Below, piece by piece: positions 1 to 773 of a stretch of DNA of 773 nt. The translations under genes were made by a program, and so were the position numbers. This stretch comes from Escherichia coli. Its GTDB lineage: Bacteria > Pseudomonadota > Gammaproteobacteria > Enterobacterales > Enterobacteriaceae. The stretch lies in assembly GCF_003334385.1 (NCBI RefSeq), contig NZ_QOWN01000145.1; one strand, written 5' to 3'. Below the pieces are notes generated by a model, which was not told the DNA's origin, made no database searches, and saw nothing but the letters and a program-made list of their open reading frames with translations. The number at the start of each line of letters is the position of its first letter. The first letter of the stretch is position 1.

Positions 1-773
1 AACATGGCCTGGTGTCTGTGGGATATGCTGACCCATCCACGCTACGGCATGGGGAAACGTCTTGGTGCGGCGGATGTGGACAAATGGGCGCTGTATGTCA
101 TCGGCCAGTACTGCGACCAGTCAGTACCGGACGGCTTTGGCGGCACGGAGCCGCGCATCACCTGTAATGCGTACCTGACCACACAACGTAAGGCGTGGGA
201 TGTGCTCAGTGATTTCTGCTCGGCGATGCGCTGTATGCCGGTATGGAACGGGCAGACGCTGACGTTCGTGCAGGACCGACCGTCGGATAAGGCGTGGACC
301 TATAACCGCAGTAATGTGGTGATGCCGGATGATGGCGCGCCGTTCCGCTACAGCTTCAGCGCCCTGAAAGACCGCCATAATGCCGTTGAGGTGAACTGGA
401 TTGACCCGAACAACGGCTGGGAGACGGCGACAGAGCTTGTTGAAGATACGCAGGCCATTGCCCGTTACGGTCGTAATGTTACGAAGATGGATGCCTTTGG
501 CTGTACCAGCCGGGGGCAGGCACACCGCGCCGGGCTGTGGCTGATTAAAACGGAGCTGCTGGAGACGCAGACCGTGGATTTCAGCGTCGGCGCAGAAGGG
601 CTTCGCCATGTACCGGGCGATGTTATTGAAATCTGCGATGATGACTATGCCGGTATCAGCACCGGTGGTCGTGTGCTGGCGGTGAACAGCCAGACCCGGA
701 CGCTGACGCTCGACCGTGAAATCACGCTGCCATCCTCCGGTACCACGCTGATAAGCCTGGTTGACGGAAGTGG
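1..773 (+). CDS. J: Internal fragment (5' and 3' partial) of phage tail tip / host-specificity protein J (lambda gpJ-like central tail fibre protein); central conserved region, not the C-terminal receptor-binding region
   Basis: Seen in sequence: frame +1 from nt 1 is open for 257 consecutive codons to the window edge, with the last 2 nt being a partial codon. Codon usage is enterobacterial/lambda-like (ctg, ccg, gcg, cgc and cgt preferred). From recall: the translation matches the gpJ segment that starts ...NMAWCLWDMLTHPRYGMGKRLGAADVDKWALYVIGQYCDQSVPDGFGGTEPRITCNAYL... and continues ...HVPGDVIEICDDDYAGISTGGRVLAVNSQTRTLTLDREITLPSS.... The ATG at nt 2-4 is an internal Met codon, not the start; gpJ begins several hundred codons upstream. 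This CDS is absent from the ORF track, presumably because the track requires a start and stop within the window. Confidence 0.93.

Follow-up and report, generated by a model that had tools for sequence, protein, structure and literature searches.

The locus analysed here, 773 nucleotides of Escherichia coli contig NZ_QOWN01000145.1 (assembly GCF_003334385.1; hereafter the window, meaning the whole stretch), raises the question of whether a fragment of phage gene J carries information on host range. The gene is named "host specificity protein J" in many records, and the window is still unusable for inference on receptor or host range, a result that guards against over-interpretation. Almost certainly, the window is the conserved hub core of a lambda-type J protein and is uninformative on host range, receptor choice being made by a separate C-terminal module. 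This analysis establishes which fragment of J the window is and where it lies, to which fold class it belongs, how well it is conserved relative to the rest of J, that it is under purifying selection, and that it is uncoupled from the receptor-binding domain. An initial annotation, made from the sequence of the window, had reached the same result, which is established knowledge on a well-studied protein and adds nothing new.

Identity and position of the fragment within gene J

Frame +1 is uninterrupted over positions 1-773 (257 codons, zero stops), the five remaining frames have 1 to 18 stops each, and frame +1 was open in none of 20,000 shuffles of the window sequence. A megablast comparison with phage records returned 216 matches, headed by lambda and its derivatives at 98.6% DNA identity. 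The window aligns to lambda coordinates 16315-17087, that is to codons 271-527 of the 1132 codons of gene J (15505-18903). The same residues were found by a PDB sequence search (chains 8iyk_J and 9e7m_Ja, E ~1e-179), and 255 of the 257 residues are those of the solved lambda gpJ chains, the exceptions being T368A and A519T. The features that matter for the position and the fold are the following.

1-773, plus strand: internal fragment of gene J (tail tip attachment protein/central tail fibre), codons 271-527 and two bases of codon 528, start and stop codons absent

178-684, plus strand: Pfam Phage-tail_3 (PF13550), J residues 330-498, core of the baseplate hub fold, wholly within the window

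637-771, plus strand: first 45 residues (J 483-527 of 483-569) of the beta-sandwich/OB insertion of hub domain IV, boundaries from PMC10721106

The initial annotation had placed the window in the hub region of J, away from the C-terminal receptor-binding end, and the alignment to gpJ agrees with it by three routes (PDB search, Pfam and the NCBIfam profile described below). Its wording "central portion" holds for the hub region and not for the exact centre of the protein: the window spans 24-47% of the length of J, which is the second quarter and lies in the N-terminal half.

Among the complete E. coli genomes compared, the gpJ gene of a prophage of strain SCU-104 (NZ_CP053284.1) is 100% identical in DNA over the whole window, and its 1137-residue product was used as the parent protein. 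The tail gene row around it reads tape measure, M-like, L, K, I, J, lom and stf. As in lambda, J thus stands after the tape measure/M/L/K/I genes and before lom and stf, a context that is not visible within the 773 bases themselves. The parent protein scores 2273 bits against NCBIfam NF049904 (lambda_TipJ), above the curated cut-off of 1950, while the 257 residues of the window alone score 601 bits at profile positions 271-527, the cut-off being set for whole proteins and out of reach for a fragment. The annotation gives the small SCU-104 tail gene just upstream of L, at the gpM position (L002:4785-5114), as a pseudogene containing an internal stop; given this pseudogene, the SCU-104 prophage may be without functional tails.

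Domain content and fold

All six Pfam domains of a lambda-type J are present in the expected order on the SCU-104 parent: FNIII-A (86-207), Phage-tail_3 (330-498), Ig_J (610-714), Ig_J_second (716-818), Phage_Tail_Tip (846-972) and the receptor-binding Ig_GpJ_C (1001-1136). From this map it follows that the window has all of Phage-tail_3 and no fibre or receptor-binding domain.

In the lambda tail-tip structures, the hub of gpJ is ordered as HDII-insertion (with FNIII-A, 72-215, inserted), HDII, HDIII and HDIV, with the beta-sandwich/OB domain (483-569) within HDIV; after the hub come the linker, the FNIII pair, the helical shaft, the beta-prism fibre and the receptor-binding domain (PMC10721106; PMC11101478). 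These structures bear out the earlier statement that the N-terminal and central parts of J form the tail tip hub. The window comprises the hub scaffold HDII-HDIII-HDIV past the N-terminal insertions, and runs 45 residues into the OB insertion.

The structural model predicted for the window resembles solved hub proteins of lambda and of systems beyond the J sequence family. Comparison of the model with each gave the following figures, which carry no label.

Lambda gpJ: 17.3

T1 tip protein: 12.6

JBD30: 12.4

Chi: 10.7

Gene transfer agent (GTA) hub: 10.0

T5 pb3: 8.1

Mu gp44: 6.9

R2 pyocin hub: 5.4

VgrG: 4.6

The predicted fold of the window is that of the universal baseplate hub. Model confidence (predicted local distance difference test, pLDDT) is lower at window residues 210-257, and the OB-insertion end of the window is also less conserved, with identity among distant homologues falling in bins 481-520 and 521-560.

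Conservation along J

Two samples of homologues were used. The close sample consists of 105 homologues from a 90%-clustered protein collection, ranked by full-length score. An exhaustive HMMER search gave 7,908 representative hits, and from the best 150 of these come the 73 full-length representatives, all with less than 60% overall identity, that make up the distant sample. In the close sample the identity to lambda is 98.3% over the window (mean entropy 0.040), 73% over residues 819-975 and 39% over residues 976-1132. In the distant sample 97.0% of the window is aligned, at 47.5% identity, and only 7.6% of residues 976-1132. The sole segment with a higher identity is the adjoining 208-270 (53%), and the FNIII domains stand at 22-25%. 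Of the lambda residues, 87 are conserved in 90% or more of the distant sequences; 47 of these lie in the window, against 19.8 expected from its length. The high variability and indels of the specificity region were found in the window neither among close nor among distant homologues, and the possibility that the segment is hypervariable, named in the initial annotation as grounds for revising it, did not materialize.

The most conserved stretch of 257 residues in J is 242-498, which shares 228 residues with the window. Among 876 sliding windows of J the stretch analysed here takes rank 200, its OB-insertion end pulling it down. A tblastn survey of phage genomes agrees with this layout: 1,767 records match lambda J and 322 cover at least 80% of it, distant records covering roughly J residues 4-606 or 4-849.

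Identities to lambda over the window and over residues 976-1132 in a panel of lambdoid phages were as follows.

SCU-104: window 99%, residues 976-1132 41%

640R1: window 98%, residues 976-1132 43%

3W: window 97%, residues 976-1132 47%

Stx1a phage: window 77%, residues 976-1132 41%

Stx2a phage: window 77%, residues 976-1132 43%

mEp515: window 43%, residues 976-1132 0%

HK97: window 41%, residues 976-1132 4%

N15: window 41%, residues 976-1132 0%

phi80: window 40%, residues 976-1132 0%

The window is 97-100% alignable throughout the panel, and residues 976-1132 are mostly or wholly unaligned in mEp515, HK97, N15 and phi80. The expectation that the segment be conserved across lambdoid phages is therefore upheld at the level of homology and fold, the window being among the best-kept parts of J, and not at that of near-identity, which is confined to the lambda-type sequences (97-99%) and drops to 77% in Stx phages and to about 40% in HK97, N15, phi80 and mEp515. 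The J of phage phi330 was left out of the panel because the gene appears split. In the vB_EcoS_phi330 record the tblastn match comes in two pieces, the open reading frame (ORF) from the J start has 138 residues, and the annotations read "hypothetical protein" and "tail fiber protein"; the split is either a frameshift or a sequencing error.

The window differs from lambda at 11 nucleotides, nine of them synonymous third-position changes and two non-synonymous. This ratio, as a comparison of sequences, indicates purifying selection. The two non-synonymous changes are the following.

292, plus strand: A-to-G relative to lambda, giving T368A, at a position variable among homologues

745, plus strand: G-to-A relative to lambda, giving A519T, with T in 105 of 105 close homologues

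Both fall at freely varying positions. Position 368 is V in 99 and A in 6 of the 105 close homologues and has 1% identity to lambda among the distant representatives; at position 519 it is the lambda Ala that appears as the outlier.

Receptor recognition and its relation to the window

Published work on lambda locates receptor choice elsewhere in J. Host-range mutations fall in the C-terminal portion, and LamB is bound by the last 249 residues (PMC3509688). The specificity region, J 960-1132, holds most natural variation and the OmpF gain-of-function mutations (PMC6646904). Chimeras fused at residue 964 retarget lambda particles from LamB to OmpC with the hub unchanged (PMC11338833), and the LamB contacts are made by four loops of the receptor-binding domain (PMC11101478). 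These papers support what the initial annotation had said of lambda, namely that receptor recognition and host-range mutations map to the C-terminal part. The window stops at residue 527 and does not overlap this region (~960-1132; Ig_GpJ_C), which begins 433 residues (~1.3 kb) downstream of the window end. A host-range call requires sequence starting there, as had been anticipated.

The linkage between hub and receptor-binding domain was compared in the phage panel because 103 of 106 close-set sequences, in a sample ranked by full-length similarity, share one receptor-binding-domain class. Similarity in the two parts is uncoupled in both directions. Among lambda, SCU-104, 3W and 640R1, mutual identity is 97-99% in the window and only 40-67% in the receptor-binding domain. 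Conversely, the receptor-binding domain of SCU-104 is 99% identical to that of the Stx1a phage while the windows are only 77% identical, and the domain of 640R1 is 97% identical to that of the Stx2a phage, the windows again being 77% identical. J genes that share near-identical copies of the window thus carry, among them, three or four different receptor-binding domains at the least. By these comparisons the hub and the receptor-binding module reassort freely, so that the window predicts nothing on the receptor; the claim that it holds no information on receptor specificity stands.

Side tail fibres, which also affect adsorption, dock at the gpV/gpM junction and not on J (PMC12617516). A role of the window as docking site for these fibres, which would tie it to OmpC adsorption, was considered and rejected, the Stf collar binding the gpV/gpM junction (PMC12617516).

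Alternative readings

The label given to the whole gene in many records could mislead a reader into placing the window within, or overlapping, the receptor-binding or host-range determinant of J, as a segment variable among homologues. No other support for such a placement was found and its probability is next to nil: the window is J 271-527 whereas Ig_GpJ_C is 1001-1136, distant homologues align over 97% of it and over only 7.6% of 976-1132, and the corresponding identities to lambda in close homologues are 98% and 39%. It is also extremely unlikely that the fragment is phage lambda itself, from a laboratory strain or vector, rather than part of a distinct lambdoid prophage. The 98.6% DNA identity to lambda and to many of its derivatives would suit this origin, but the window differs from lambda at 11 positions and has an exact match in no phage record, whereas it is identical to the SCU-104 chromosomal prophage and 99.9% identical to prophages in nine other listed complete-genome records; moreover, the receptor-binding domain of the SCU-104 parent J is not of the lambda type, with 40% identity to that of lambda.

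A subtler proposal is that the hub core acts on host range indirectly, after adsorption, through the threshold for tip opening or through compatibility with gpL, gpI, gpM or gpH, in which case the window classes (~98, 77 and 40% identity to lambda) would be informative. Hub domains shift as rigid bodies on opening and gpI threads their gaps (PMC11101478), and the exchange of the hub as a block, seen in the Stx1a phage J with about 77% identity to lambda over residues 1-609 and 94-96% over 610-975, suggests co-variation with assembly partners. However, the J host-range literature (PMC11338833, PMC3509688, PMC6646904) yielded no host-range mutation in J 271-527, receptor retargeting succeeds with the lambda hub unaltered (PMC11338833), and both substitutions relative to lambda lie at positions that vary freely. 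We regard this indirect action as very unlikely, and give an equally small chance to the suggestion that discrete hub alleles (~98%, 77% and 40% to lambda), possibly block-exchanged near residue ~610, mark gpL/gpI/gpM/gpH compatibility groups or tune tip opening. If it were true, the window would inform on infection steps after receptor binding, and still not on receptor choice.

The assignment of the window to a conserved hub core, uninformative on host range, remains the preferred explanation; no observation runs counter to it, though it has limits. The exact boundaries of HDII, HDIII and HDIV have no published numbers in PMC10721106 and PMC11101478, the numeric limits being 72-215, 483-569 and those of Pfam. 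Both homologue samples are biased by the way in which they were ranked or chosen. Identity over the window is modest (~40%) across the classic lambdoid phages, so that "conserved" refers here to homology and fold and not to near-identity. Finally, the window alone is no proof of an intact source gene, and a neighbouring tail gene in SCU-104 has an internal stop.

Probable role of the hub in tail tip closure and opening

The mechanism of assembly and opening is inferred from published lambda structures of 99%-identical sequence (PMC10721106; PMC11101478). The window comes after the N-terminal HDII-insertion/FNIII-A domains and ahead of the linker that leads to the two FNIII domains. Three J and three gpL chains would form the last ring beneath gpM, which narrows, continues and closes the tail tube, and gpI would pass through the gaps among the hub domains and plug the lumen. 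Binding of LamB by the distant C-terminal domain would send a signal up the fibre, upon which the FNIII strings would detach; HDII-HDIII would then rotate outward as rigid bodies and the channel would widen to ~3 nm for DNA. Receptor choice is left to the C-terminal module, which is exchanged freely, extends from about residue 960 to the C-terminus and begins ~1.3 kb downstream of the window. It is thus probable that this hub forms a trimer at which the tail tube ends and is kept closed until the receptor is bound, given the cryo-electron microscopy of a lambda gpJ that is 99% identical over the segment.

Other features of the window and related records

One further feature was noted.

121-609, minus strand: 162-residue antisense ORF, shadow of the J frame, which is rich in GC at third codon positions (GC3)

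As a gene, this ORF was rejected, since it is kept open in neither close nor distant homologues. A stop interrupts it in phage 640R1 (96% nucleotide identity), and the J genes of Stx phages likewise have an internal stop and lack its start codon besides; it is therefore a shadow ORF. An Rfam scan of both window strands, with E up to 1, gave no family match.

Of 5,426 complete E. coli genomes, 4,534 contain the window segment; the median is three copies per genome and the maximum 14, and most copies are 95-99% identical. Such abundant, near-identical J repeats could be a substrate for recombination between resident prophages. Two database records stand out. In MW057783.1, named "Campylobacter phage CJLB-4" (48,361 bp), the J segment is 98.6% identical to the window, the same as lambda, at lambda-like coordinates; to all appearance, this is a lambda genome deposited under the name of a Campylobacter phage. 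A "tail:host specificity protein" of 1,882 residues from Bacillus thuringiensis Sbt003 is 96% identical to the E. coli prophage J and is probably due to contamination or to a fused gene call in the assembly.

Comparison with known systems

The closest known system is lambda gpJ (UniProt P03749; PDB 8IYK, 8K35, 8XCG, 9E7M), whose residues 271-527 share with the window the coordinates, the Phage-tail_3 domain, the hub fold and the gene neighbourhood. It differs from the window by T368A, A519T and nine silent changes, and from the exact-match SCU-104 parent by a C-terminal receptor-binding domain with only 40% identity.

The J proteins of long-tailed Stx-converting phages, such as Stx1a_JNE111036 and Stx2a_PV98-693, are full-length and co-linear. 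Their window region is 77% identical, and that of Stx1a is a different hub allele joined to a receptor-binding domain of the SCU-104 type (99%). Compared with lambda, the Stx1a_JNE111036 J is a mosaic, with ~68-79% identity over residues 1-609, 94-96% over 610-975 and 41% in the receptor-binding domain. This pattern of identities implies putative recombination junctions near the hub/FNIII-1 linker (~610) and near residue 975.

HK97 gp24, N15 gp21 and the phi80 J homologue have a homologous hub, 97% alignable over the window, and occupy the same position in the tail gene order. They differ by an identity of only ~40% over the window and by C-terminal parts that are unalignable with that of lambda (0-4% over 976-1132). 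N15 and phi80 use FhuA as receptor, lambda uses LamB, and phage 434 and the A8/1A2 chimeras use OmpC. Further away, the hub proteins of T5 (pb3), T1 (tip protein), Mu (gp44) and the GTA, and VgrG, which represent other tailed phages and contractile systems, lie outside the J family, with 5-17% sequence identity and differing domain insertions. T5 pb3 includes the HDI domain in the hub protein itself by fusion; the HDI of lambda is in gpL (PMC10721106).
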